From positions 434,001 through 496,425 of the forward strand of contig ML978139.1 of the NCBI GenBank assembly GCA_010015805.1: 62,425 nt of DNA, given 5' to 3'. A program made the translations under genes and the position numbers. This DNA is from Rhizodiscina lignyota (lineage: Eukaryota). The first letter of the stretch is position 1. The number at the start of each line of letters is the position of its first letter. This document shows positions 4,347 to 61,546 of the stretch, piece after piece. Under the pieces are notes generated by a model, which ran no database searches, was not told the origin of the DNA, and saw nothing but the letters and a program-made list of their open reading frames with translations.

Positions 4347-5791
4347 CTTTATTTGGGGTTTTGCTCCTTTTAGCTGAGATGGGAAGGGAAGATAATGAAG
4401 AGATGAATTGGGCAAGCGCTTTCCTCACTGTTTTTCGCTGAACCATGTCGCAGACATTCTGAAAAATTACAAATCTTTGTCGCTCCTTTGTGCACACTCG
4501 TGCACCTGTATGACCAACACCTTCTCCACGTTTCCGTGGTCTTCTTGGTTTCTCATGCTCTCATCAATAGTGTTTGATGCATGCAAGCCACTCTTTCGGT
4601 TTTATGCCCCATTCATGATTAGCCGTTTGCGCAGCTTATAGCTTGTCATAAGAGGCAAGACAGCAAGTTGAGTGTGATTAAGCCTGTCTCAGTGTTTGGA
4701 ACGGTTCTTTCCTGTCTATCTTTGCTACTCCTTACGTATGAGCCAGGCTTTGGAATAAGAACTTGAGTGTTGCTCAAGGAACTTTTGGTCTCAATTTGCT
4801 CTGAAGCTAGCGCTTCACTGAGCCCTGTTGTTCCCCTTTCATACATTAAGCGCTACTCCCAACTGTTGTCAACTCTTTTTCGAGAGATGGTCCATCCTTC
4901 ATTCGGGGATGCCGCTTCTGCCGATGTCATTCCCACTTCAAGCCCTGCCAACACTCAGCGTACCTCTTAAATCACAGCAGGCGCTTAGAGGCTGATCAGA
5001 GTACGACAAGTAATCTTATGCCCTATGTCAAACACCATCCTAATCTTATCCATGTTATATTTCTCCAGGAGACTAGACGCTCAGATACTCGCTATGCTGA
5101 GATCTGATGTCCTTTCTCTATCTTCTGGAAATTACGAACCACATCGAGTCGATCATTGTAACTGTGGTACTGCGGGACCCGGTAGTCACGCTCATGATTT
5201 TCGCTACTTTACGTTTCACTTTCAGTCAGAGAGAGTCTTAATCTTGGGGGTTTTTATTTCGGGGTTTTTGGATATAGGGTATTGTTTGCGAGTCGCTCAA
5301 CATTAATGCTCATCACATTTTCATTGATTTTCGTCTCCGCTTCTGCTTTTTTTCACTGGCGGATATGGGCTGCTGTTTTAATATTGGTACATTATGGGGA
5401 TGAAGTGAAATAACTTTCACCTCTTGACAACATCTCATATAATTTAAGATGCTTGTTGTAATCATCATTCACGGTTTATTGAGGCTTGCAAGTGAATACT
5501 TGAGGTGGATCTCCGCCTTCAAAAGTTCAAACGCCTCCCTCCCACACCCTGACGAACAGTCGAACACCCGTGTACATCGTGCCCGCTTTTTCAGACCTGA
5601 GCATAATCCCGTCAGCTACAACAGTAACGACCTCTCGAGGTGAGAAGCCGCTGGAGGTGAGAAGCTCTCCCGAAAGATCACTGCACCCGAGGAGCGACCC
5701 TCGGACCAGGCTGCTCCAAGCGAAGAGCTTCCCCCGCAGACACCGCTGCAATCGAGGAATGGCAGACCGGAAACACTTGCTCAAGTAGTCT

Positions 5792-7886
5792 TCAGACAAG
5801 GGTGATCTCTTCCTTCTTAAGAAGCCCGCCCACCAATCCGCTGCTGCGAAATTGTCCTTATTATCATGCATAAGCTCATAGACGTAGCATGCTCCGACGA
5901 GTTTGTATTCTGAAGAAACATTTGTAGGGCGTAATATTATCGGCACGCAACATCCGAACACGATTGCTAGAATGTCGGATTTGCGGAGGATTCCTGGTCC
6001 CAAACCGCATCTGCCACCAGTTGTGGTGAAAAAGATCCTGTCATGACTGGAGTTGGTTTCATTGGGGAACCGCTGCGGATCAGGCTGTTTCGATGATACC
6101 CCTCCGGATAAGGATTGAAAGACTGAATCTTTACTCGCCAACTGGTGGAATTCCGTACCACAGAATCTTTGGCAGTATGCAAGGAAATCCTGTTCAATCC
6201 AACTGGCCTCTAGATAGATTCCGGAGACCAGAGTCCACATGAATATTACCCAAGGTGACACCTTTACACTCAATTTGGCTGCTTGTCGAGCATCCGAGTA
6301 AATGGTCCATAATCTGTCCATAGTATGACTCTTGCTTGTAGCTGATGAAGGCTCGATAGCCTTTGTGAAATCTTCCGATTGGAGCGGTTGTGAGTGCTCG
6401 CCAATCCTCTCGATGAGAAGGGCGGCCACAGATAATCGGCTGTCTGAAACGACAGGAAATACCTGCTCAGTATCTTCTTCTAAGCAAGACCAGGCATAAT
6501 AACTACATTTTTGATTGTGGCGTCCATGCCACTGAGGGACCCAAGAAGGTCGTGAAGAAGCCAGATCCTGTTCCGATCGATGTACATAACATAGAAAGTC
6601 CAGCGAACGAGTGGATGTAAGAAGTTGTTCAGCAGCACGTCGATTTGCTTCATCCAGAGAAATATCGTAGTTTGGATCTATGAGATTCTGCAGAGAGGGA
6701 TGTCCCAAAAATGCGTAAATGTGATCTCGGTCGTCTGTTGCAAGAAATCGACGGCTCATATCAAGGATCAGGGCCGGTAATAATTTGTCATAGGCCAGCT
6801 GTGACTGTCTATATTTTGCCAGGCTTCTCAATGCCTCAGTTTCAGTTAGCCATGACTTGTCCCTGGGCATTGTTGACCACATGAAAGCGAATGCTTCAGA
6901 CAAACGCCCAACTGGCAAGTAACAGAAAGTAGGATCCGGATTGTATGTAAACATTGTGCTAAAGAGTGCAATGTGGCTCCAGGGTATGGAAAAACGCCCA
7001 CAGAATGCTGTTACGCGTTTGGAGAGCCCAACCTCGCCCAATACCCAACATCGAGAAAACCACGCCCGTGAGAGGAAGTCTTCCAAGCATTTTAGATATT
7101 CAGAGCGTAGCTTCTCCTGCGGGAAGTCCGGGGCATAAAAGATCAGGTATTTCTTCTGCCAAAAGGCTATCTCTTGAGACCTGTCAGGCGTGTAAATTGG
7201 GAGTCGACGTAATTAACAAATTCGATGATGAGGCCCAACGCACACTCGACGCATTCTGGATTCGACCTTGGGCAGGAGGAGTGATCGGATTGACTGTCTT
7301 CTTCTCCCAACCAGACAAGAGTGCGATATCCGTGTTCGTATATTTCCTTCATAAAAGCAACTTGGTGATTCTTTTCTAGATTGCTCTTCTGGTCAATACA
7401 TATATTGTCTGCCCAGAGTAATCGTGGTTGCATCCTTCGAAACCGACGAAGTGCTTGGAATAAATTGATGGTGATGAAGTGCGGTAGCCTATTGCAGATG
7501 ATTTCGCAAGTGTCGGTAAGGTCTCCCCAAGCGTATGAGATAGGTTCGTAATCCGGTGCTTTGTTTAATTCGTACGTAATCAGTTGACATTCGACGGGGT
7601 CGTCGAACTCTCCAGGAAGAAGCCTGAGTAGCCTGAACCACGGTCCACTCGGCAGTGGATTGTGTTTGAACAGCTCCCGGGTTTCGCTTGTACTGTTATT
7701 CGCTGACGAGTTCGACAGCCGAACATTTCCTTGTTCACTTGTCTCCGAAACAACTGTCTTCTCGTCCATTGTAGTAGAGGGGTGACCGCCTAGTTCGGAG
7801 TGTGGTTTGCTGGACGGCGTGTTAAACTTCCGTTCAATCATCGAGGCGTGATCTGTGGGAACGCTCAAGCTAAGGACGATAATCAC
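5792..7886 (-). pseudogene. HET-domain (heterokaryon incompatibility, HET-6-like) gene with two apparent frameshifts
   Basis: HET motifs FRLLRLLPG, YEPISYAWG, LWADNICIDQ, QVAFMKEIY, WFSRCWVLGEV and PSWVPQW. The coding is split between two frames near 7170-7210. The typical C-terminus (KKEEITLV-stop at 5792) lies in another frame. Confidence 0.7.
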
Positions 7887-8298
7887 ATCGTCGAGAAAGA
7901 ATTAGACAGGCACTGCAGTTTGCGACAAGAGTCTCTTTGAACCATAGAAAGCTGTGAAGTGAAGGATTGTTGCCTTTTGCAGTCTGGTGGCGCAGCTTTG
8001 AGACGTGCGAGGTTTGCGGCTGAGCTGCACACGTCTGCAAGCTAATGAAGGCCGAGAACATCCACACCGCGTCAAGGGTATTTGAACTGTATACCGAGGT
8101 GGTATTTCCAGCTCAGATATATCTGTGGCGATCTTGTTGAAGATAAAAGAATAACTCGAAGGTATGGGATGTAGCCTTAGGTAGTGTTAAAGATTTCACA
8201 TGGCTGAGGCAGGCGGGCGCGGTTCGACTTAGACAAGAGCATTTGAATCCCTAACGAACTCAAATGGTGTTCCTCTTCCATATAAGAATACATATGGC

Positions 8299-44662: not shown

Positions 44663-46269
44663 ATGGCTATCATTGAAATTACCGGAAATGTTCAGAGTCG
44701 CTTTATTCAGGCTGCGGTTCTCCTTCACTTGCTCGACCCAGTCCGTGGCGAGCCAACGACGCATGGCCTCGATCGAGACTTGAACGAATTCGAACTGAAC
44801 CGAGAGCGTCTTCTTAAACGGAAGTTTCTCGACTCTTTTGCGCTTATCTGCGCAACGAAGAAAGACGGCGATACCGTATCGGCGGCTTCTTTAGAGGAGG
44901 GGCTTCCAGAGGGGACGGTCATTCGCGTCGCGAGCAATCACGGGGTCACAAAGGCTACCCTATGTGGGCTACAGGAACTGGTGTCTATCCTAAACGCTGT
45001 TGCCAGTGGCGGTGAGCAACACCATCGAGATAACCAAACTTACTGCTTATAGTAGCTTCATGTCGCAGAGTGCATCGCGTCCCATAAGGAGTCGGAGGTC
45101 CCAGCACGGATCATCAGTCTAGATATTGCCAGAATACGGTACTATCTAAAGGAACTCCGCAGCGTCAGCGACAACGTGAAAGAGGCCATCGGACGCTTCA
45201 AGTCGGGAACTGCGTATCTCCAAACTGATCATTCTCGCTCCGTAAACTTCACTGAATGGATCGCACACGTCTTTGAGATAAGAGACTTGGCTCCGGATCT
45301 TGCTCCTAACAGTCTTATCGACCACATTTGGTGGGCTCTGGAAGCTCGGCGAACTTACCTGGAGTGCTTGAAGGCTGCATTCTCTACCAAGGGCCAGGCG
45401 TTCCCTCGATGGGTCTACCTATTCTCAAGCTTGGACGATATGCGGTCGCCTCTATGGCCTTACTCCGGCTTGCTTCCGAGTTTCCGTCTCTATTCAGCCC
45501 AATGCTTGTAGAACCTGCAATCGCTCCTCAAAAAGTCCAGTTCACAATCACGAAACAGGAGATGCCCCTGACGAGTGTGCTTCGAAGACTTGTCACGAGT
45601 AGTCAAGTAGACGATTACATTTCCCGGCTAGCTCGTGTCTGGGGTGTTGTGGACGCAGAGGTCCATTTCCGAGAGGCTTGTGCTTTAAGCCTATCTGTTC
45701 ATGCCGAAATGCAGCTTCTCAACTTCTACGACCATAATCCCGGGAGAAGACCGGCATTCCGCTTTATTGGGGTGAGCAAGAAATCCTGTTTTCTCTGCCA
45801 GCGGTTTCTTGTAAACCATCCACAAGCTTTCGGCGTTTCGTCTTGCCACCAGAAGCTTTATCTCCCTTGGAGGCCTCCGCCCGCAGCCAATGCCACCATC
45901 TACAGACAGTACAAGAGTATTACAACTGACCTTAGTAAAGATATGGAGGCGGCAGCGAAGCAGGAGTTGCAAAATCGTCTCGGTCTCCGCCGGCCTGTTC
46001 CTCCTGACTCAACTGCTGGTGTGTCTCTCTCTGGTTTGTCGGGAGAATTTGTGGTGGGGGAAACTCTATACGCGACGTCATCGCTCTCGCCGATTGACGT
46101 GGTGGACCTCACATCGCCAGATGAGGAACTGTCCCAGTCCTCGTTTAACATCTCTCCTGTCGGCGACGCATTCTCAATTGCTAAAATGGTATTCCATGTG
46201 ATGCGCCCTGGCGAGACTCAGAGGCAAGACATTATCGCTATACGCGATATACTCTTAGGGGAAAACTGA
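44663..46269 (+). pseudogene. OTT_1508-like nucleic-acid deaminase gene with a 1-nt frameshift
   Basis: FLDSFALICA...IRVASN N-terminus, intron 45012-45068 and catalytic HAEMQLL...IGVSKKSCFLC. The frame changes at ~45419 (FPRWVY to ILKLGRY). Confidence 0.7.
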
Positions 46270-47735: not shown

Positions 47736-49172
47736 TTACCATTGCCGCACATTGACCCCCATGTTCTGCTTGAAGCTGAAGAAATCAGACAACACTGTGG
47801 CTACTCTCTCCACAATCATGTCGATCTCGGCAGGTGTGACATTGTAAGGGGGTGCGATGAGGACATGGTCTCCAACAACACCGTCCACTGTGCCTTTGCC
47901 TGGGTATAGACATATGTTATATGGCTCCTGCATTGCCAGCTCGTGGATGGAATAGCCTGCGCTCAACTCCAGCGGCAACGGCTCCTTTGTGACCTTGTCC
48001 CGTACAACCTCTATCGACCAGAACAAGCCCCGCCCTCTGATCTCACCGACGTTTGAATGCGACGCGACGGCAGTGTGAAGGGATGTGGCAAGGCGGCTTC
48101 CCATTTCTCGCACGTTAGACAGCAGGCCATCTTCCTTGATGATGTTTTGGACTTCCAAGGCTGCAGCACATGCCGATGGGTGCGCCTGGAAGCTTTGGCC
48201 GTGTGAAAACTTTGAGGTGCCAGATTCCAGAACTCGATTCACTTCACGGTCGATGAGCACACCAGATATCGGGACATATCCTGCACCGAAAGCTTTGCCA
48301 ATGACCTGAATGTTGGGTACTACATTTTCTTGTTCCCAGGCGTGCATGGTACCTGTTCTGCCCATGCCGCACATGACTTCGTCGAGGATCAGGAGGGCTC
48401 CATGCTTTTCGCAGACTCGCTTGACCCCGTCAAAGTAGCCGTGAGGAGCAGGCACGGTGCCGGTTGATGCACCTGTCACCGGCTCTGCAACAAAGGCACA
48501 GACCGTGCCTTCAGGAAAGCGGGCAAATTCATCGTCCAGTTCTTGCACAAGTCGGGAAACGTATGCTTCGATCGATTCTCCGTCTCCGAGTCCACGATAG
48601 GTGTTGCATTGAGATACGCGGCTGCTGTTGGTAGGGAGGATCGGCTCGAATGGACCGCGACGACCTAGATGGCCACCAATTCCCAACGTTGTGAGCGTTG
48701 CGCCATGGTATGAGGGCAATCGCGCAATGAAATGTTTCCTAGATGGTTGAGGGTTCCGTAGTTCAAGATAATATTGTCTGGCAAGTTTCAGAGCCGCCTC
48801 CAGTGCTTCTGACCCAGAGCTGAGCGTCAGTAGCCTCGCCATTCTTCCTTTAGTCGAGTCTATGACCGTTGCTGCTAGCTCTTCACTTGCGGCTGTCGTG
48901 AAGAATTGGCTATGGCAGTAAGGCACCGTGTCCATCTGTTTCCGGACCGCTGTTTTGACTCTGGCGTTGTCGTGACCCACGCATGCCACCGCAGAACCAC
49001 CGCATGCATCGATTATCCGTCGTCCGTCGGCTGTATAATAATAGATTCCTGATGATTTGGTGATGACGGGTGCTTGTTGGCGGAGATCCCGGGACAATAC
49101 GGCGCTGATGCTGCTGGCGTGCGCTTGCGCTTTCAAAGACCTTTGCATAAGGCGCCTTGAGATTTTGAACAT
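47736..49172 (-). CDS. Class III PLP-dependent aminotransferase (omega/beta-amino acid transaminase, YodT/BioA-like)
   Basis: Intronless. Motifs DACGGSAV, SGSEALEAALK, SYHGAT, AFVAEPV, LILDEVMCGMGRTG and IGKAFGAG (PLP lysine). The N-terminus is Arg/Ser-rich. Confidence 0.92.
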   Translation of the reverse strand: MFKISRRLMQRSLKAQAHASSISAVLSRDLRQQAPVITKSSGIYYYTADGRRIIDACGGSAVACVGHDNARVKTAVRKQMDTVPYCHSQFFTTAASEELAATVIDSTKGRMARLLTLSSGSEALEAALKLARQYYLELRNPQPSRKHFIARLPSYHGATLTTLGIGGHLGRRGPFEPILPTNSSRVSQCNTYRGLGDGESIEAYVSRLVQELDDEFARFPEGTVCAFVAEPVTGASTGTVPAPHGYFDGVKRVCEKHGALLILDEVMCGMGRTGTMHAWEQENVVPNIQVIGKAFGAGYVPISGVLIDREVNRVLESGTSKFSHGQSFQAHPSACAAALEVQNIIKEDGLLSNVREMGSRLATSLHTAVASHSNVGEIRGRGLFWSIEVVRDKVTKEPLPLELSAGYSIHELAMQEPYNICLYPGKGTVDGVVGDHVLIAPPYNVTPAEIDMIVERVATVLSDFFSFKQNMGVNVRQW

Positions 49173-49817
49173 GATGGACACTCGTGAGTCATTATTTGTG
49201 GCTAGAGGAAGTTGTAAACTTGCAATCAAAATGGCTCATAAGGGCTATGTGAGTCCACAACGAGAGTTGCGGCATAGGCCACAGTATATGGCGTGAATGA
49301 AAATGGAACGAAGTTGGGGAACCAGATTCGTAGCTTTTTTCGAATATTCTTAGAGCCTTTTTACAATATCAGATAATAATTGTTCAGCTCCTTTAGTAAG
49401 CCGCATGGGTTTGAAATTTGAATGGCCCCCTTGATTTGTGGGGGACGCTGTGACGCTGATCCCGGTGGGTTTTACAAGTAAGCGTACACCGCGTGACAAG
49501 GAAATAACGAAATGCAATAATAATGAGGAAGGGAGTAACAATGACGAAGAAATTAGCGCTTAGAATACTGTAGGCTTCAGCATGTTTACTAACTTAAGTT
49601 TCAGTTGACAAGAAATGCACCTAGTGTCTCTGTACCTGCACACCGATCCTGGTCTGACTGGCCACGCACCGGTAAAAGAGCTTGTCACTGACTATTTTCA
49701 CAGCTCTCGAGCTCTTGTTCCATATTCGTTGTGTCTTCTGTCTTGTTTGCTGTAATTTTCAGATACTCTTCATCATCGCTCAACGAGTTGTCAATATAAT
49801 GACTTGGCCGATACATC

Positions 49818-51289
49818 ATGCTACCTAAAAACTACCAGCTCTTCTCCAAGAGTGCTCTTCCTGCACTCTTCAAAAGATTTCAGCCAAACCTCGATGGAGA
49901 TAAGTTCATTGCGGCAGCTCATGTATTTCCCATGCGAGTTAATAACCATGTGGTCGATGACTTGATTGATTGGTATATGAAACCTGGGTGTTTATATTCT
50001 TGAGTGGCTGATATGTATGTAGGTCAAATGCATCGACCGATCCCATGTTCAGACTGAGCATTCCTCAGCCAGATATGCTGCGTCCCCACCACCTTAACTC
50101 CATTTTAGCAGCCATGCGGAGCCCAGACACCACGAAAGTGGAAATGCGAGAAATCTCAGAGTCAATACGAAGACTTATGAATCCCCATCCAGCCGGGCAA
50201 AAGGAAGAAAATGTGCCTCGGGTGAATGGTGAGCCTGTCGCCGGCTTACAGCACAAGTACCGCGAAACTGTACTTTTCTTCCCTTCTGAGGTGAGCTATA
50301 ACGAGTCTAAGCATTTTTGAATTGAAGCAGTTCATTAAAGTATTCAGGCACAATTCTGTCACGCGTTTTGTACATATTGCTTTAGATGGGCGCAGTTCAC
50401 CTCTGTGGGCTCAGACCAGGCATTCAAGACGTCAGATCGAGATCTTCTTGTGCAGTATATCCAACAACATCCCAGGGTTACCGACGTCTTATTCACTGGA
50501 GGAGATCCAATGGTTATGTCCGCCTCAGCCTTACGCCACTATACGAAGGGATTATATGGACCAGACAGCCCACCGCATTTCAATACTATCCGGATCGGGA
50601 CAAAGTCGTTAGCGTGGTGGCCATATCGTTTCGTAACAGACCCGGATGCTAAAGAAACGCTAAAGCTTTTCTCTGAGATTGTGAATTCTGGAAAACATCT
50701 TACTATTCAAGCGCATTTCAGCCACCCCAGAGAAGTGGAGCATCCGGTAGCCCAGGAAGCCATCAAGCTTATTCGCATGACCGGTGCGCAGATCCGATCC
50801 CAAGCCCCACTCATCAATCATGTCAATAACGACCCTGATACCTGGGAGTCTATGTGGAAGCTTCAAACACGGCTCGGTATAATCCCTTACTACATGTTCG
50901 TGGAGCGTGACACGGGCGCTCGCGACTATTTCTCCGTCCCACTCGCAGAAGTCCTGCGAATATTCAAAACTGCATACTCGCGCTTGCCCGGTACGGCACG
51001 GACAGTTCGAGGTCCGTCGATGTCGGCAGGGCCGGGGAAAGTGTGTGTCTTGGGCAAAACAACCATAAACAATGAAGAATGCTTTGCGCTTATGTTCTTG
51101 CAAAGCAGGAATCCGAAATGGACAGAGAGGATATTTTTTGCGAAATACAACCGTGAAGCGGTATGGTTGGATGACCTCGAGCCTGCTTTTGGAGAGACAG
51201 AGTTCTTCTTTCAAAAAGAATATGACGAGCAGAGAGAAATGGTAAACATTGGATCATCGGGCCAGCTTAGCCTTAGTGGTGAAGTTTAG
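49818..51289 (+). CDS. KamA-like radical SAM/PLP amino acid 2,3-aminomutase, 3 exons, ~454 aa
   Basis: Introns 49973-50022 and 50291-50347. Motifs GLQHKYRETVL, CHAFCTYCFR (CxxxCxxC), VLFTGGDPM, IRIGTK, HFSHPRE, IPYYMF and SAGPGK. Confidence 0.92.
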
Positions 51290-51807: not shown

Positions 51808-53744
51808 TTATCGGCGGCCATGAACACCCCAATCATCAGCGAAAGGAATCTCTGGCCAAATCTCAATGCCATGCGGCGCATCAACAGCAGTCTTTCCTTG
51901 TGCGTCCCCGAAATAGTCAGCGAAAACTCGCTTTCTTACAAGCTTGCCAGAGAGAGTGCGGGGGAGTTCTTCCTCGGGCTTGAGAACACGTAGGACGAGG
52001 GGCAACATATAATCTGACATGTTGGCCGCCGCGAGGTCTGACCGGATCTTAGCCAGATTGATGATGCCGTCATTTGGCATGTTGGCGATATTCGGCTTCA
52101 ACACCACTGCGCAGAGCTCGCGCACTCGTGTGTTCGGGACACCAACAACACACGCATCCGACACGTAAGGAAGCTCCATCACAGCGTGCTCTGCATCAAT
52201 GGTCGGTATATAGAACTGCTTGAACTGCACATCTAATAGACTATGAGCTGTAATGATCTGACGGGAACGATCGGGAAGCTTACAATCTGAACCTTTCCGC
52301 CCAAAAATAAAGAACTTGCCATTTTCATCGACTTTACCGAGGTCACTAGTCTTGTAGAACCCGTCCTCGTCAAAGGCTGCACGGGTGCTTTCCTCACGGC
52401 CAATGTAACTAAATCGGATTAGAGACACAATAAACAGGCACGATTGTCATGCATATGTGCGTAGACTCACTGTGTCATCATTGTCTTGGACTTGACACGA
52501 ATCTCGCCTAAATCCTCTAGACCCTCTATACCCTCTGGCACGAGCTTCATCTCAGCCCCGGGCCAAGGGGACCCGATGCAGCCCTACGTTCCTCTATGCT
52601 TAGAATATCGATCTTTAAAATCAATTGAGGTGACGTACCGTTGGACCAGAAATCTCACTGGATACAATCATGCCGGTCTCGGCCACAGCATATATGCACT
52701 CAAACGGCTTTCCCGTCAAGTCCACCCAAAACTGTCGCACCGAAGCTTCAATCTGGCGAGAGCCAACCATGATCGAGCGCAGGCCTCGGAACATGGTGCA
52801 ATACTTCTTCCTAGCTCCTTCTGATAGCGTACCAGTCCGGGGATCCGTGATCAAGTCCTTCATATCCTTCAGATAAGTTGGGTAGAACGTAGCGCGGGTC
52901 ACGCGGTGATCGACAAAGGCTTGCATTACATCAGGTACAGGAGCACGCAAGTCGAGGGAGTACAGGATCTTCCCTGAGAGCACAGGCTCAATGAGCGAAT
53001 CCGCTGCGCCGACCCAATGGTACGGACGGTAGTTCAGACTGATACCGTCGGGCTCTGCAAGGCTAAGAGGGACCAAAGCCGTTCGAGGAAGACAAACCGC
53101 CTTTGCATCTCCAGTAGTTCCTGATGAGAAAATTGCGAGTCCAGGACTGTCGTCGTCCAAAGGCAAGTTGTGGTCAATTTTGACATCAATGCGGTCCTTG
53201 TGTTGTGCATCACTGGATATGGGACCTGCCGCCAACGAGATCGGAGAAGCATTCGAATTTGCGAAATCACAGATATTACGCGCTTCTTGGTCGCAGTCTT
53301 TTCCATAGAGGATACATGTCGCCCTGGTTGTTTTCAACCAAAAGTAGGCCTGCTCGGGTAGGATATCGTTTGCTGTGCCAATGACTGCGTCAACAAAGTC
53401 GTGTAAACGTAAACATATGACTTGAATTACTTACCTAACGGTATGGCTGCACCACCGAGGGCGCGAATGGCAAACAGACCAACGAGAAACTCATATCCAC
53501 TCTTGACAACAATAAACATATATGGAGCTTCGTGGTGCAAGAGGCCTCGTTCGTTGAGGGCCAAAGGAGGCAACTTCTGGAGAACAGCGGTGCGCGTACT
53601 CAGGACGTCGGCGACTAAGTCTGCATAGCTCTTCTCGAATCCCATCACATCGTGTACTACAACTTCCATAAAAGGTCTTTGCTGGCTGACGCGAAGCAGC
53701 TGCTTCAGCATGATGTCGGATGGGAAGCTGCACGGAGTAGCCAT
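51808..53744 (-). CDS. Adenylate-forming (ANL) AMP-dependent synthetase/ligase, multi-exon
   Basis: P-loop FSSGTTGDAK, YAVAETG, GFYKTSDLG, GRKG and the C-terminal LPRTLSGKLVR lysine motif. Confidence 0.88.
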
Positions 53745-54139
53745 GGCTGCTGTTCAGTCTACACAATTGGTGAGTGAAACGTACGTAGGAATCGTAACAA
53801 AGCATGAGCAAGAAGAAGCTGTAGAATTTGGATGGGCTCAACAAAAGAGCGGCGTTTTGAGATGCCGAAGACGCGTGCAATGATGAACGCAATCATGATC
53901 AAGGGCAAAAAGCGGTCTGTTTAGATCATTTTAGCAACCTCAGCTGACTGTTCACAAAGCTTCTTAGAAGTAGCGAGCATAGTCACACAGTAGCACGCAG
54001 TATCAGGCCTGACTGGCAGCATCTTGAAGCACTTACAAGGTACTCCCTTCAGCGACGACGCCGCATACACATCTCACAGGGCCTGCGGAAATAGCACATG
54101 TCCCGGGCTAGGCTCTCTTTAACACCCTCGGGTGCAACA

Positions 54140-55320
54140 AGTTAAATTTAGAGGCTTCAAACCAAGTGCAAGTTTCAGGCGCAGCCCAAGAGGTCCTATA
54201 GAGTAACCACTAAGTAAAGTTTTGCGAACAAAGCTTCTCTTAATACTTTTTTAAGTCCGGAGTCAATAGTGAAAATTGAAGAATCTAAAAGCTCTAGTAT
54301 TATATAAAATATAAATAATTAGGTAGGATAGAAAGACTATAACATAGGACGGAGAGAACTTTACCAAAAATTACCCTATAGCGGTAAGACTCTCCTACAA
54401 ACACTTTATCCGAGATATTCGCTGCCTAGAAAATCATCTTACGTAACTCTCTTACCTCTAGGCTACCCTTCCTAATCCCGGTTCTCGCGCGTAGCACTTA
54501 GCCTTACTAACCGCTATGTCTTTACTTCCTAGGATGTAACTATAAATATTGGCTATAACTAGCTTACATTTAAACTAGAATTTCGGAGAGACGGTTCTTC
54601 CTAACCTTGCGAACACCCGCGGCCGCGAGGGCAGTTAAAATCGCGACAACATACTAGTTTAGCGAAACTCCGCGAGAAGATATTCTTTAGCCTAAAGAAT
54701 AGCTAAATCCGTATTATTCGATTAGTATATAGCCTTTAGTATATAGTCTTATTTTAATTGCCCTTTTAGCTGTAGGTATAAAGTATAACGTCGATCTCTT
54801 TTCTAATCCTATTAGCTCGTAGAATACGAGAATTTCCCTAATCGCGTTAGCTAGTATCTATACATATGTTATAAATTAGTGAATAGTTAAGCTAAATCGA
54901 ATACTAATCTCTAAAATTTAGGCTAAATAACAGTATTTTAAACTATAGCTAACCGCTTTAAGAGAGTAGGATTTTTTGAAGATATTTAGATCTTCCTATA
55001 TCTATACATAGATTAACGTCCGAACTTATTAGTAATTGGCTAACTAAAATAGACGACGTTATATATTTTGCCTTACGTAGTTTTACGTAGCTAGGGGTAT
55101 ACTTAATTTCCGAATTAGGGGAGGACTATATATTCGCTCCTCTCTATAGGTATTTACAAAATATCTCGAAAACCTTACGAGCCCCTAAACATATCCTACC
55201 GCCGCATAAATTATAAAACGCTTCTTAGGTTATTTAACAAGGATTAAAGGCTCCGTATAGACGGCTTAGCGGGCCGCTCGCGGTACGCAATCAGTAGGGG
55301 TTAATAGAGTACTAATACAG
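54140..55320. mobile_element. RIP-degraded repeat/transposon relic
   Basis: Abrupt AT-rich stretch, TpA-rich and CpA/TpG-poor, with no ORF of 60 aa or more in the six-frame track. Confidence 0.7.
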
Positions 55321-55560
55321 TCTTTCCTCTTAATACCTTACAGATTCGTAATTAAGATCATCCTATGACTTCCTTATTTAATGTCTTACAGGTTTATTTC
55401 TTAGGTCATCATATTTAGAGCTTTTCAGATTATGTGTTCGTTCCCTTCATACCTTGCAGTTCGTGACTCGGATGATATCATGAGCTTTTCAAACCAGAAA
55501 TCTGCTTCCTTTAATGCCTGCAGGTTCGTGACACAGATCACATTATGCGCTCTTCGAATT
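55320..55560. repeat. Three to four degenerate tandem copies of a ~60-nt unit
   Basis: Recurrent TTAAT(A/G)CCTT(A/G)CAG(G)TTCGT(A/G)A...GATCA...ATGAGCTTTTC-like unit. Confidence 0.55.
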
Positions 55561-55572
55561 GGGTGAGATTGA

Positions 55573-55747
55573 TGAAACATGAACTTTCAAGGCTGAGTGT
55601 AGTCGGTGGAGTATGGCCTAAAAATAGGGTCAGTCACGATTTGTGCTTGGGGGTTCGAACCTGTGAAGCATCAACTTTCAATTGTGAATGCAGTCGGTGA
55701 AGTATGACCTAAAAATATGTCAGTACACGATATATGCTTTGGGGTTT
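55573..55747. repeat. Imperfect tandem duplication (~91-nt period) upstream of the Pictet-Spenglerase gene
   Basis: Two copies of AACTTTCAA...AGTCGGTG(G/A)AGTATG(G/A)CCTAAAAATA...GTCAGT...CACGAT...TGCTT..GGGGTT. Confidence 0.8.
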
Positions 55748-55888
55748 GGAAGACGAGAAGAAGGCATATAAAGCCTTTCAAGTCCGTTGACCATTCGTGC
55801 CTTATCCTCCATAATCATCAAGCACTGTCTACATTGCTACTTCAACAATCTTTGCTGTCCAGCTTTTTCTAGACACTAAGAAGCAGTC

Positions 55889-57024
55889 ATGACCATCACC
55901 GCAAGCCACCGCATCAACGTGAAATGGCCCCAGCTGGGTATTACCGTTAGAGCGGAGATGGATGTGAACACCAATCCACGACTGGTCAACTTGTTGTTCG
56001 AAAACTTGCCCTACCGTTCGCTCCAGAACCATGCTTTAGTTTCCGGAGATCACTTGTACCACTTGGTGCCGACGGAAAAGCTCATTGTAAGTGAAATCCT
56101 TCATACAACAGAATTGCACTCTAGCTAATCACCTCGTCTTTCTACTTTGTAGTACACTCAAGCGGACTTCAAGGTCCCCGACAGGACGACCGAGCCCAAT
56201 GGCACGGTCTTCCTCTCCGGGCTCCAGCATTTGGCCATCAAGTATGGCCCACTGACTGAGTACCTCCCAGCGGCACCATGTGGCTATGTCATTCCTGAGG
56301 ACATGCCCGCCCTTTGTGAAGCTGGCCAGGGAATCTGGAAGGCTTGCAACGAAACAAAGCAGGTTATTGAAGTCATCGTTTGGGATGCTTCTCAGCCGGA
56401 GCCTACCGGGCATCTTCCTCTTATCCTCGAGCGGAAGGGATGCTCCAACGAAGTTGTTAAATTGGTTGAGGCGATTCACGATGAGGTAAGGCCAAATACC
56501 TTGAGTACAGACAACCAGCCTACACATCGCTCACATGTTTTCAACTTCATTAGACTGAAAAATCCTGGTCTGGCATTTCCAACGATCTTAGCCTGGTGCA
56601 CATGGGACTGACACCATCGCGTGCTGGCTCGAAGGGCTCCTACTTCGCGACCATGGTCTTCGCGAACGGAGAGATTCGCCCGCTGGGGTACAACGTCTTG
56701 AACAACATCCTGAAGGTGGCCGTAATGCAGCCGCAGTTTGACATTAAGCATCTCGTAACCCTTTACGAGACGTTCGCCTCCGTTCCCGCCGAGTTTGTGG
56801 GCTACGCGGGTGCTAACTGGTTGTACGCCACTCATCAGAGGATTACCACGCTTCTCAGGAAAACCGTTGTCTCAAATCCTAATGCAGATGATGCCCGTGA
56901 GGACTTCTTGGCCCTAGTCAGCGCCTTTTCCAAATACGTCAACCTGCTTAACGCGCAGAACCTGCATGTATTCCCTTGGAAGCATACTACGGAATATCCA
57001 ATCCCAAGGTGGCTAATGTGGTAG
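55889..57024 (+). CDS. McbB/cucumopine-synthase-like Pictet-Spenglerase, 3 exons, ~333 aa
   Basis: Introns 56087-56152 and 56486-56553. LPYRSLQNHALVSGDHLYHL, GTVFLSGLQHLAIKYGPLTEYLPAAP, RAGSKGSYF...NGEIRPLGY, PAEFVGY and NLHVFPW closely match McbB motifs as I recall them. Confidence 0.88.
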
Positions 57025-57592
57025 AGTCAATTTGGATTGGACTAGGCGGCGCAGAATATGGGTTCAATATTCAAGTTTATAGATCAGGAAGATATTTAGC
57101 TCAAGGAGAAGATAGAAAAATTGTGCTCCATCTATGGTAACTAAACTTTGCTACGAATCTTTGAGCGACAATGGGAGATGGGTCCAATCTTTTAGTATAA
57201 ATTTGCGTTTGATTTAATACACTACTCGTTTGGTACCTACTGTTTTCTAAGAAGATTGATTTGAAAAACTTTAACCTCGTTTGGTACCCTACATACAGAT
57301 TACATACGAAGATTCAAGGATGAAGTCCGAATAAGGTGGGCCAAGCAAGTAATACGGGGAAGCTGCCGAAATGCGAGTAAGCTAAGCCAAACCGAAAGCT
57401 TACGACTTGCGGCGGAAGCGGAATTTCGTCTTACCTAAGTCCCAATGTTTATGCAAGACCCGCCCAGGTGAGACTTCCCTTTTGAGGTGCAATCTCCAAG
57501 TTCATAAGCAAAGAGATCTGCCGTCGCCTAGGAAAATGAATCAGACTATACCAAGTACAACTACGCAAAATATTATTGACTAGTCCGAGAAC

Positions 57593-58133
57593 ATGACATC
57601 TGTTTTCGCAACAATCATCGTGTCGCCTCGTCCCGGCAAAACGGAACGAGTAAGTGCTCCCCATTTCACATTGCTTGCCTATAAAATATCTACAGCGCCG
57701 AGGGAATCTAATAGAGCATCTATGTAGGTCAAGGATCTTCTTTCGAAAGTTGGCAAGCAAGCCGAGGAGACTCTGAAGTCAGTTGTACAGTATCAGCTTT
57801 TCGAGCAAACTGGGAGAGACGGAAAAGATCTGGAAAATGGAAAAATCATTGTGCACATGCAATGTAAGTCATGCCAGTTATACGTGATCTTCCCACCACA
57901 TACGGGGCATCTTGGGCAATAACTCGCTTCTGTGTGCTCTATGGAAGAGAAGAACGTTGTACACGTTGCTGATGGATTCGTTCACAGATGCGAATCTCGA
58001 GGCCGTTCTCGCATACCATACCTTAACTGCCTTCCAAAGCTTCCGAAGCGCTATCGAAGAAGAACAGCTCCTCGCTACTCCACTTGAGGTTCAAATGTGT
58101 AAATTATTTGGGGGATTTGCTGCACGGAGCTAA
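57593..58133 (+). CDS. Small ABM-type (dimeric alpha+beta barrel) protein, 3 exons, ~112 aa
   Basis: Only the last exon appears in the ORF track. Exons 57593-57649, 57728-57863 and 57988-58133 with GTAAGT...YAG introns give MTSVFATIIVSPRPGKTERVKDLL...YQLFEQ...IVHMQYANLEAVLAYH...FQSF. Confidence 0.75.
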
Positions 58134-58312
58134 TCCACGTAAGCCGAGCTGTATTACATATATATATTGAATTCGTCTACGCGGTCCCTTGCTTTCTTCT
58201 TCAGCTTCGTAATATTGGATATACGGTGTTCTCTCTTTCACTACACCACCTTTACTACCGGGGGATCCGTACACGTATCAGGCCTTCACTGGCTCTCACG
58301 ACCGAACAACAT

Positions 58313-59003
58313 ATGATCCCCAGGTTCATAATGACCATTCCGAGAACGGCAAGCCGAAACCTTTTACTTCGTCAAAAAGGGCCTTTGCAACGATTTCTCC
58401 GTACCCTCAGCACCACCCATCCCCCACGACCTAACCCGAAGCGCGTTGACATGCCACGACCGTCAAGTTATTCACTTACTAGAAGGTCATTCTCTGCCGC
58501 AAAATCAGCATCACATAATAACTGGTCGCCACCAAAGGCGGGTGAAGAGTATGTGGAGACTCTCGCAATCGAAGACACTTTACCAATGCAAAATAGGCTT
58601 TATACCACCTTCATCGATAAAGGAGGAAACGAACACAAGATAGCTGTATCAAAAGGTGATAACCTGCTGGACGTTGCACAAGCGAACGATATCGACATTG
58701 AAGGTACGAACTACGAAGCTCCGTCTTTGCGATATTTGCCGCAGCTAAAGCAGAACAGGAGCTTGTCAACGATCATGCGCATGCTCCACGTGCCACGTAA
58801 TAGTTGATGGCGAGGAAATGTATGAAAAAATGACTGAGCCTGACGATAGCGAGAATGATATGCTTGATTTGGCGTTTGGTCTCACCAAGACGTCGAGGCT
58901 GGGCTGCCAGGTTATCATAGACGAGGCACTGGACGGCATAAGAGTGAAGCTGCCTTCGATGACGAGAAACGCGCAAGCTAGCGACTTTAGCAGCCAGAAG
59001 TAG
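58313..59003 (+). CDS. Adrenodoxin-type [2Fe-2S] ferredoxin (Yah1-like), 3 exons
   Basis: Introns 58549-58596 and 58704-58758. [32 protein letters not shown]...[18 protein letters not shown]. Arg-rich mitochondrial-type presequence. Confidence 0.9.
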
Positions 59004-59773
59004 AGATTAGGCCATGGAACGGTGGCGGAGCCGCGGAGCCGTGGCGATTAGGAATTCTGGTGTCCGCCATCGCTGTTTTTTAGGTCGTCATGATCTCAGT
59101 GCAATGAAAACTCATGAAGACGTAGAACTAGCTATGATTGTGAAGTTTACTGTTTATAGTACATACATTCCGCTCCTTGGAGGGGAGTAACTCCAACGAC
59201 CCTCAAAATTAAACGACACATGGTCCGATCACAAAGATCAATGATAGCTTGAGAGTCACTGATGACTCTGCTCTAGCCTCCTTAAACTGACCAGCTTGTC
59301 TAATGCCTCTCGCGGCAAAAGTTAGCTCCATGAAGCCGCTTGTGGCAATCTCGGCGAGAATTCCCTTACGGATGCCCTTGTCCAAAGGCTGCAGTATTTG
59401 GAGAATGATGCCTGCGCCACTCTGGGTGCTGACTACAGGGTGGTACATATTGTATACAAGATGTGGAGCCACATGGTGGAGGGATCTACAATGGCCATCA
59501 TGTCAAGCTGAGTAAAGTAAGCGTTCGACTGATCGACAACGCACATGCGTGTGCATCATCGATCAAATATTTTGTGAGACTTAGACTTAGAGTCCTTGGC
59601 CCCTTTCCGCGGTCTCAACTATTTTCATTGCCGCTTTGACCCCTTAAACGCTGGCCTGTGCGAACATGGGGACACGAATAGACTCTCCTCCGTAGGTATT
59701 TTTCATCAATTTCGTTATAGGTCCTGGATTTTGGAATTTCACATTCGTTCTACCAACAGACAGCCTCGACAAG

Positions 59774-61546
59774 ATGAGCAGCGCCGAAGTCTCGCTTCAC
59801 CATTCCACCCATCAGTTGGTGGTACCTCGAGAAGGAGCTGTGATCTGTACTTTACAGACCAGTCCTTCACAGGCCAGCACTTCACATTATGTATTACTGC
59901 AGCCGTCAGGTCTCGATGCCTTGGTCGATTTCGACGGCGTGGGAGACCCGCTCAACCCGCAAAACTGGTCTTTTTCCAAGAAAGTTAGAATAACGGGGCT
60001 ATGGGCGTTGACGACGTGCTGGATCACGTTGGCCTCGGCCATCTACGCCGCAGGCACGCAGCAGATCAGCCAGGAATTCGAGGTGACTGAAGAAGTGGCC
60101 AACGCCGGGACGAGTCTCCTGGTGTTTGGCTTTGCCATCGGCCCTATGCTCTGGGCGCCACTGTGTGAGCTGTATGGCCGGAAGTGGCCTTCTCTTATTG
60201 TACGTTTCCTTTGTTGTTTTCGCGTCAATGATTTTGCGCCAACTTTTTCTTCAAGCCGTATTTCATTAGCGCCGCTTTCGCCTTCGGCACTGGGGCGGCG
60301 AAAGACATCCAGACGGTTCTCATCACTCGCTTCTTCGCCGGCGTGCTTGGAAGCGCTCCGATCTCCGTCACCGGCGGGGCAATTGTGGACATTTGGGCAC
60401 CGAAGCAGCGTGGAACGCCAATCGTTTGCTACGGCGTCACTCTCGCGGCAGCTCCCACCGTAGGGCCTGTCATCGGCGGCGGCTTGGTTGCCGCCTCTCA
60501 GCACAGTGGCTGGCGCTGGACCCAGTATCTAACGGGCATTCTCATGATGATCCAGTTCTTTGTCGATGCTCTTTTTCTCGACGAGAGTCAACCAGACGTA
60601 CTTCTGACTCGAAAGGCGCAGCGGCTGAGACACGAGACTGGCAACTTTGCCCTTCATTCCAAAGTGAGCAGCCTTACCTTATCTGCCCAGGTAATGTGCG
60701 CTGATGTGGTAAATAAAGCGGGAAGAGTCAGGGCCCTCTATCAATGATCTGGTCAATACCTACCTTGTCCGGCCATTTCAGATGCTTCTCGATCCAATTT
60801 GCCAGTTGTTTACAATCTACACGTCCTTCGTGTTTGGTAGGCTTCTTCCACCCTGAATGCTGTCGATTGATCCGCTGACTTGGATGACAACAGCCATCTT
60901 GTACGCCAGCTTGACGAGCTTTGCAATCGAGTACCAGGAAGACAGGATGTTGGGTCCAGTGGTAGGGGAACTGCCGTTCCTTGCAATGTTGGTCGGTTGT
61001 TTCTTCGCTGCTGCCGCCAACATCTACAACAACAACTACTACACAAAACGCTTCGTCGCCAACAACTTCAAGCCGGTAGCCGAAGCACGGTTGCCGCCTA
61101 TGATGTACGGGGGTTTTACCTTTGCTGGAGGCCTGTTCTTGTTCGGGTGTAAGTGAATGGCATGCCGTCCTTGAATATGCGTACTAATACCACATGGGAT
61201 AGGGACTTCTTCACAGCATGTTTCGAGCCCCTGGCCTTCCATTATTGGCGTTTTCCTGACCGGTTTCGGCTTCACGACTATTTTCCAGGCCGCCCTCCAA
61301 TATTTGGTCGACACATTCACTCTTTATAGCGCAAGCGCCGTCGCTGCCAACACCTTCGTGCGGTCCCTCGCTGCTGGTGCTTTCCCACTCTTCGTGTCGT
61401 CGATGTATAGGAAGCTCGGAATTGACTGGGGCACTACTGTCTTTGCACTTTTTGGCGTTGTCCTGCTACCTGCACCATTCCTGTTTTTCAAATGGGGATT
61501 TAAAATTCGCGCTAGAGGACGGTGGAGCAGACTGTCCACTTTATAA
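59774..61546 (+). CDS. MFS drug:H+ antiporter (DHA1 family), multi-exon
   Basis: Motifs DPLNPQNWS, GPMLWAPLCELYGRK, GPVIGG, GWRW, EARLPP and YLVDTFTLYSASAVAANTFVRS. Confidence 0.9.

Follow-up and report, generated by a model that had tools for sequence, protein, structure and literature searches.

The cucumopine synthase of Agrobacterium makes cucumopine from histidine and alpha-ketoglutarate. McbB works together with the amide synthetase McbA, which amidates the beta-carboline acid in marinacarboline biosynthesis, and the McbB gene sits in the marinacarboline cluster. McbB of Marinactinospora thermotolerans is known from its structure (PDB 3X27) and is a homodimer, as is KslB of Kitasatospora setae (PMC12012969). 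In fungi, Fcs1, which is BBA_06474 of Beauveria bassiana, has been reported to make 1-acetyl-beta-carboline in both E. coli and yeast (PMC10372676, PNAS 2023). According to the same paper, Fcs1 E100 corresponds to McbB E97, and all 19 other residues at this position abolished activity; docking and mutagenesis identified four more pocket residues besides S50, a site that is Ala in AnCs1, the inactive homologue from Aspergillus niger. It further describes the fungal proteins as a clade of bacterial descent with one active and one inactive group, of which the active “FG I” includes Fcs1 and BBO_05229, apart from AnCs1 (PMC10372676).

The family has since been described under the name of opine synthases by Kong et al. 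(2024, J Adv Res; PMC12536604), who give 471 members for PF18631, 115 of them fungal, and who report that BBA_06474 is silent in laboratory culture. Under the name “Rhiz-OSase”, these authors had the Rhizodiscina lignyota protein KAF2093315.1 chemically synthesised; after its expression in E. coli they report tryptopine A and B by HPLC (PMC12536604). The evidence given there for Rhiz-OSase is HPLC of culture extracts, and the heading on the in vitro assay names only BBA_06474 and Asper-OSase. Judged by titles and abstract openings, PMC12536604 is the only paper treating this gene among the matches listed for McbB with fungal, Fcs1, tryptopine and Rhizodiscina lignyota.

The DNA analysed here, which we call the window, is a stretch of 62,425 nucleotides from R. 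lignyota (contig ML978139.1 of assembly GCA_010015805.1, positions 434,001 to 496,425). R. lignyota is a wood-dwelling fungus, a Dothideomycete of the order Aulographales. We read the gene at 55889-57024 as encoding an active, stand-alone Pictet-Spenglerase of the McbB/Fcs1 type (a “type III opine synthase”, PF18631), which came to fungi by one transfer from bacteria and is long since adapted to the host, and we give this reading a probability of about 95%. The present analysis establishes how the gene is built, which family its protein belongs to and which residues are conserved, and product formation by KAF2093315.1 in E. coli is established in print (PMC12536604).

Gene model, protein family and pocket residues

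The gene model was made from the sequence at 55500-57500 and its stop-to-stop frames, with the exons joined by coordinate in a script. It has three exons and two introns on the forward strand, from the ATG at 55889 to the TAG stop at 57022-57024 (Table 1). The spliced product of 333 codons plus stop is identical at every residue to KAF2093315.1 (P0001; UniRef100_A0A9P4I5Y7), publicly named “cucumopine synthase [Rhizodiscina lignyota]”, which is the sole member of its 90% cluster and, among the matches listed, the sole R. lignyota protein in the family. The two spliceosomal introns of the initial annotation are real: their ends are canonical, the reading frame is closed unless they are removed (stop-to-stop frames), McbB homology picks up again exactly at 56153 after intron 1 and at 56554 after intron 2, and the alignment to 3X27 is free of indels over the exon junctions at residues 66/67 and 177/178.

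Table 1. Features of the Pictet-Spenglerase gene and its surroundings (positions in the window)
Feature	Position	Strand	Remarks
HET (heterokaryon incompatibility) domain exon	7167-7901	-	typical fungal gene
OTT_1508-like deaminase	45310-46269	+	Pfam
Class-III aminotransferase	47736-49235	-	one 499-aa frame; Pfam
ORF with weak radical SAM match	50339-51289	+	21.8 bits, under Pfam cut-off 29.5
Adenylate-forming gene “AfeA” (P0269)	51808-53753	-	568 aa, multi-exon; next gene upstream, divergent
AT-rich intergenic stretch	53900-55888		~2-2.1 kb; GC 0.394, lowest 0.342 at 54500-54999
Tandem duplication	55573-55746		91-bp unit, 1.9 copies, 82% matches; 143-316 bp upstream of ATG
Exon 1	55889-56086	+	residues 1-66, start of N-terminal barrel domain; aligned to 3X27
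Ser52 codon	56042-56044	+	exon 1
Intron 1	56087-56152	+	66 nt, phase 0, GTAAGT...TTGTAG, CTAAT branch-like site
Exon 2	56153-56485	+	residues 67-177; motif KYGPLTEYLPAAP at 56240-56278
Glu102 codon GAG (putative catalytic)	56258-56260	+	exon 2
Intron 2	56486-56553	+	68 nt, phase 0, GTAAGG...CATTAG
Exon 3	56554-57024	+	residues 178-333 and TAG; Cucumopine_C (PF18631) ~56554-56967
2Fe-2S ferredoxin (Fer2) exon	58749-59003	+	downstream
MFS transporter	59696-60747	+	downstream

Exon 3 matches the Pfam profile for the cucumopine synthase C-terminal domain (PF18631, Cucumopine_C) at E 4e-45 and 153.9 bits, with a cut-off of 27, over profile positions 12-140 of 141, and the sole match of exon 1, to DUF3830, is weak and under the cut-off (E 0.049). 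The full protein aligns collinearly with McbB in PDB 3X27 (query 7-325, chain 23-330, E 3.9e-87), and exon 3 alone does so at E 1.4e-29. The similarity to McbB and to PF18631 is far beyond chance, and the initial assignment to the McbB family of Pictet-Spenglerases is confirmed over the full length. The single collinear alignment points to the domain order of McbB, an N-terminal barrel followed by a helical bundle. KslB, which the initial annotation had rightly placed in the same family, has both domains in common with the window protein and a Glu274 that aligns with McbB Glu97; in contrast, its helical bundle precedes the barrel, a swap of the McbB order, and it uses alpha-ketoglutarate (PMC12012969). 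A KslB-type entry matches the query in two stretches (PDB search, E 8.4e-24), and KslB is probably PDB 9ns6 and four sister entries. The same swapped, two-stretch match with the helical bundle first was seen for PDB 9uwa, 9uwb, 9k0a and 9ns6, a swap already described for KslB (PMC12012969).

The protein family is small. A HMMER scan of 1.84 billion representatives gave 204 proteins at E<=0.001, 100 at E<=1e-10 and 25 at E<=1e-30, and a word-based search gave 144 at E<=1e-5, with 120 of them listed; among these listed matches, the named fungal proteins are 46% to 76% identical to the window protein and the named bacterial ones at most 49%. As a side observation from the HMMER scan, P0136 (1908 aa, 11 stretches) and P0170 (1108 aa, 4 stretches) match short parts of the query repeatedly, at residues 116-184 and 33-97, as if they carried a piece of the fold in repeated form. 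The public label “cucumopine synthase” appears to be taken from the name of the Pfam domain; the products reported for KAF2093315.1 are Trp-derived beta-carbolines (PMC12536604).

The 13-residue motif KYGPLTEYLPAAP is identical in the window protein and McbB, and its Glu is residue 102 in the window protein, 97 in native Marinactinospora McbB (counted in P0195) and 100 in Fcs1 (P0002), with residue equivalences taken from alignment A1 of seven sequences. The catalytic Glu motif was thus correctly recognised as retained. In the same alignment Glu102, Arg77, His92, Lys96, Tyr97 and Gly98 are invariant, and Ser52 aligns with Ser50 of Fcs1 where P0180 of A. niger carries Ala. By homology to the mutagenised E100 of Fcs1, Glu102 would be the acid/base residue.

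Among described proteins the window protein most resembles Fcs1, at 75-76% identity, with a similar length class, an equal domain order, an intron-containing gene, both the catalytic Glu (E100/E102) and the Ser (S50/S52) kept, and matching products reported in E. coli (PMC12536604). It differs from Fcs1 in lacking its C-terminal extension of ~25 residues and in its host, a Dothideomycete rather than a Hypocrealean insect pathogen. The A. heteromorphus and Purpureocillium proteins, each 69% identical to it, come from species that also supplied the other two proteins in the assays of Kong et al. McbB is 49-51% identical, collinear over its full length and has the same motif with Glu97; unlike the window gene it is bacterial and intron-less, and the fungal proteins carry a short insertion at about residues 288-295 that is missing from McbB. 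CyaB is 48% identical. The AnCs1-type Aspergillus homologues (P0180, 53%) have family, architecture and the conserved Glu in common with the window protein, but carry Ala at the Ser52 position, and AnCs1 was reported unable to make 1-acetyl-beta-carboline (PMC10372676).

Origin of the gene and age of its introns

Two trees were made. The quick tree had 52 chosen rows (31 named near-full-length fungal, 10 named bacterial, four jgi and seven distant rows as outgroup) and excluded fungal models that were truncated, as well as most of the metagenome rows. The 31 fungal rows all fell into one clade (SH-aLRT 100). The distant rows lay on very long branches, and no branch separated the outgroup from the rest, which leaves the deep order of this tree unsure. 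The careful tree had 36 chosen rows, 27 fungi and nine bacteria, and omitted the jgi rows and those on long branches, as well as four Aspergillus near-duplicates and a single Streptomyces row; its root was not inferred. Here too, the fungal rows formed one clade (27/27, 100/100). Within it Beauveria Fcs1 and a Cordyceps javanica protein together make up the sister group of the window protein (98/95), and the A. niger-type proteins are a separate clade (100/100). The window protein hence groups with Fcs1 as expected of “FG I”, a group label that is that of PMC10372676. In both trees the fungal members thus come out as one clade beside the bacteria.

The positions of the introns were compared with 39 library matches of less than 260 aa with 50% identity or more to the query. 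Nine of these fragment ORFs break at 66/67, five of them exactly (“...LI” or “...LL”, with V as next residue) and four after running 3-5 residues on into “VS...”; seven of the 39 stop exactly after residue 177 (“...H.E”, then V), and two more within five residues. A phase-0 GT splice donor encodes V, so these fragments resemble ORFs called on single exons of relatives that have introns, and from their sequences both intron positions seem to be common to relatives. At least eight fragments run unbroken through 66/67 (P0039, P0044, P0046, P0055, P0059, P0061, P0068 and P0083), and these may be bacterial, intron-less or transcript-derived. BBA_06474 was cloned “intron-free” from cDNA (PMC12536604), and it therefore has at least one intron.

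Base composition is fungal and host-like, with a coding GC of 0.532 that lies inside the range of 14 neighbouring exons (0.488-0.581) and a GC3 of 0.658 slightly above theirs (0.491-0.635). Because coding GC is host-like, any transfer is old, and it is from the introns together with the fungal GC content that we read a long adaptation to the host. The old bacterial transfer put forward in the initial annotation fits the trees, the host-like GC and the shared intron positions; the pattern fits one bacterial-to-fungal transfer common to all fungal members, and its direction is left unproved by an unrooted tree.

Two other readings of the gene itself have to be weighed here. A bacterial contaminant, or a gene taken up only very recently from an actinobacterium rather than a settled fungal one, would account for the strong similarity to actinobacterial McbB, but this is refuted by the two spliceosomal introns, as the frame is open only when they are removed, and the GC of 0.532 is like that of neighbouring fungal exons. 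The window also holds typical fungal genes such as the one with the HET domain, and the identities among the matches listed (at most 49% to named bacterial relatives vs up to 76% to fungal ones) also speak against this reading, which has next to no probability left. As an observation on the HET region, a 561-aa frame that follows the HET exon (5527-7212, minus strand) has no Pfam match. The other reading, that the protein is a paralogue without activity or with another specificity, as is AnCs1 of A. niger, which makes no 1-acetyl-beta-carboline, draws on the report that some of the fungal family are inactive in the 1-acetyl-beta-carboline assay (PMC10372676). We hold it to be very improbable, since the window protein groups with Fcs1 and not in the A. 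niger clade, has Ser52 at the site of the Ala in AnCs1, and upon expression was reported to yield the products (PMC12536604).

On top of the one bacterial transfer of our preferred reading, a second step between fungi is a tentative idea, in which R. lignyota would have received the gene from near Beauveria or Cordyceps, as a single gene beside AT-rich DNA; on the sequences at hand we consider it rather less probable than its absence. R. lignyota is the only Dothideomycete among the named matches listed, and in the careful tree its protein, as sister to Fcs1, falls among those of Hypocreales and Aspergillus; a Dothideomycete gene beside Hypocrealean ones is a hint of later transfer between fungi. 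An AU test on a Hypocrealean group that was named post hoc from the careful tree did not reject a seven-row Hypocrealean clade without Rhizodiscina (lnL difference 6.1, p 0.188), and transfer between fungi therefore stays unproven. The nesting of Rhizodiscina in Hypocreales, at 98/95 in the careful tree but with this AU result, was accordingly rejected as proof of transfer.

Neighbouring genes and the question of a cluster

Immediately upstream of the gene lies an AT-rich stretch, in which we found no long ORF and no repeat with a copy elsewhere in the window. The 91-bp tandem duplication within it may be promoter DNA. A repeat or mobile-element origin of this upstream DNA was considered and rejected, the 91-bp unit and the 2-kb intergenic stretch having no other copy in the window. 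Further upstream, besides the genes of Table 1, there are an FAD_binding_4 oxidase and a methyltransferase. Downstream, the frame at 58103-58807 (plus strand) appears to be the N-terminal part of the ferredoxin gene, which as a whole (58103-59003, plus strand) looks, by eye, like an adrenodoxin-type mitochondrial ferredoxin.

Because McbB works with McbA, the adenylate-forming neighbour P0269 was tested as a candidate McbA. Among its best 60 PDB matches the nearest is the malonyl-CoA ligase 3nyq (E 8.4e-27), and 6sq8, labelled “Fatty acid CoA ligase” in the PDB and which we take to be McbA, comes far weaker at rank ~48 (E 2.8e-8). Its two AMP-binding exons, searched against the PDB, gave 0 matches and 25 generic matches to the ANL superfamily of adenylate-forming enzymes. 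An mcbA-mcbB pair was thus rejected for this neighbour. In a word-based search for co-occurrence with Fcs1-bearing fungi, made with the 269-aa exon of P0269, the only match at E<=1e-10 among 2993 candidates was the protein itself.

These results bear on the possibility that a biosynthetic cluster has gone unrecognised here, with this gene at its core and neighbours that would process the beta-carboline acid as McbA does for marinacarboline; the candidates would be the AfeA-type enzyme, the class-III aminotransferase, the radical-SAM-like ORF, the ferredoxin and the MFS transporter. A divergent AMP-binding gene does lie directly upstream, and genes of a tailoring type and a transporter are found within 10 kb, but P0269 is closer to a malonyl-CoA ligase than to 6sq8, ~2.1 kb of AT-rich DNA (GC 0.394) separates its gene from that of the Pictet-Spenglerase, the radical SAM match is under the Pfam cut-off, and the self-match of the P0269 exon leaves co-occurrence not demonstrable. 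In Beauveria, the genes adjoining Fcs1, among them CYP genes, are reported to be uninvolved, with the tailoring genes on other chromosomes (PMC10372676). In the R. lignyota window, by contrast with the Fcs1 locus, no P450 was found among the ORFs scanned. We therefore regard a cluster as unlikely; unlike McbB, the window gene has no McbA-like neighbour, and the neighbouring genes, as far as their sequences tell, lend no support to an McbA-like partner or to a cluster.

Proposed activity and meaning for the family

For the stand-alone Pictet-Spenglerase that we favour, an iminium ion would form by condensation between the alpha-amino group of L-tryptophan and a small 2-oxo-aldehyde, at the aldehyde carbonyl of the latter. 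The carbonyl substrate differs between the two papers, and the aldehyde would be methylglyoxal as in vitro (PMC12536604) or oxaloacetaldehyde, as proposed for McbB and Fcs1 (PMC10372676). Indole C2 would then attack the iminium ion, with Glu102 (McbB Glu97) as acid/base, to form a tetrahydro-beta-carboline. We infer the carbonyl substrate inside the fungus, as well as expression of the gene and product formation in R. lignyota itself. The R. lignyota gene may likewise be silent, as BBA_06474 is in laboratory culture.

The gene is real, was correctly identified and is already known: it is annotated, experimentally characterised, and its origin is published. The initial annotation had called the substrate unknown, a statement that fails because the encoded protein is the published accession KAF2093315.1, that is, the Rhiz-OSase for which tryptopine A and B were made in E. 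coli (PMC12536604). It was right that a fungal member, Fcs1 of Beauveria, had been reported (PMC10372676). The novelty that it implied does not stand, as the gene is publicly annotated and an earlier paper already covers the fungal family, including its catalytic Glu and its descent from bacteria (PMC10372676).

The gene therefore carries little weight as a discovery, with the protein synthesised, its products identified, and its bacterial origin and patchy fungal distribution in print. What is added here is the lack of an McbA-like partner and of an evident cluster in the neighbouring genes, an exact gene model checked against McbB over both splice junctions, and, for the history of the family, two intron positions that are seemingly common to relatives, together with a host-like base composition. 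If the tentative move between fungi were true, it would be a second horizontal transfer of a gene that is bacterial in origin.
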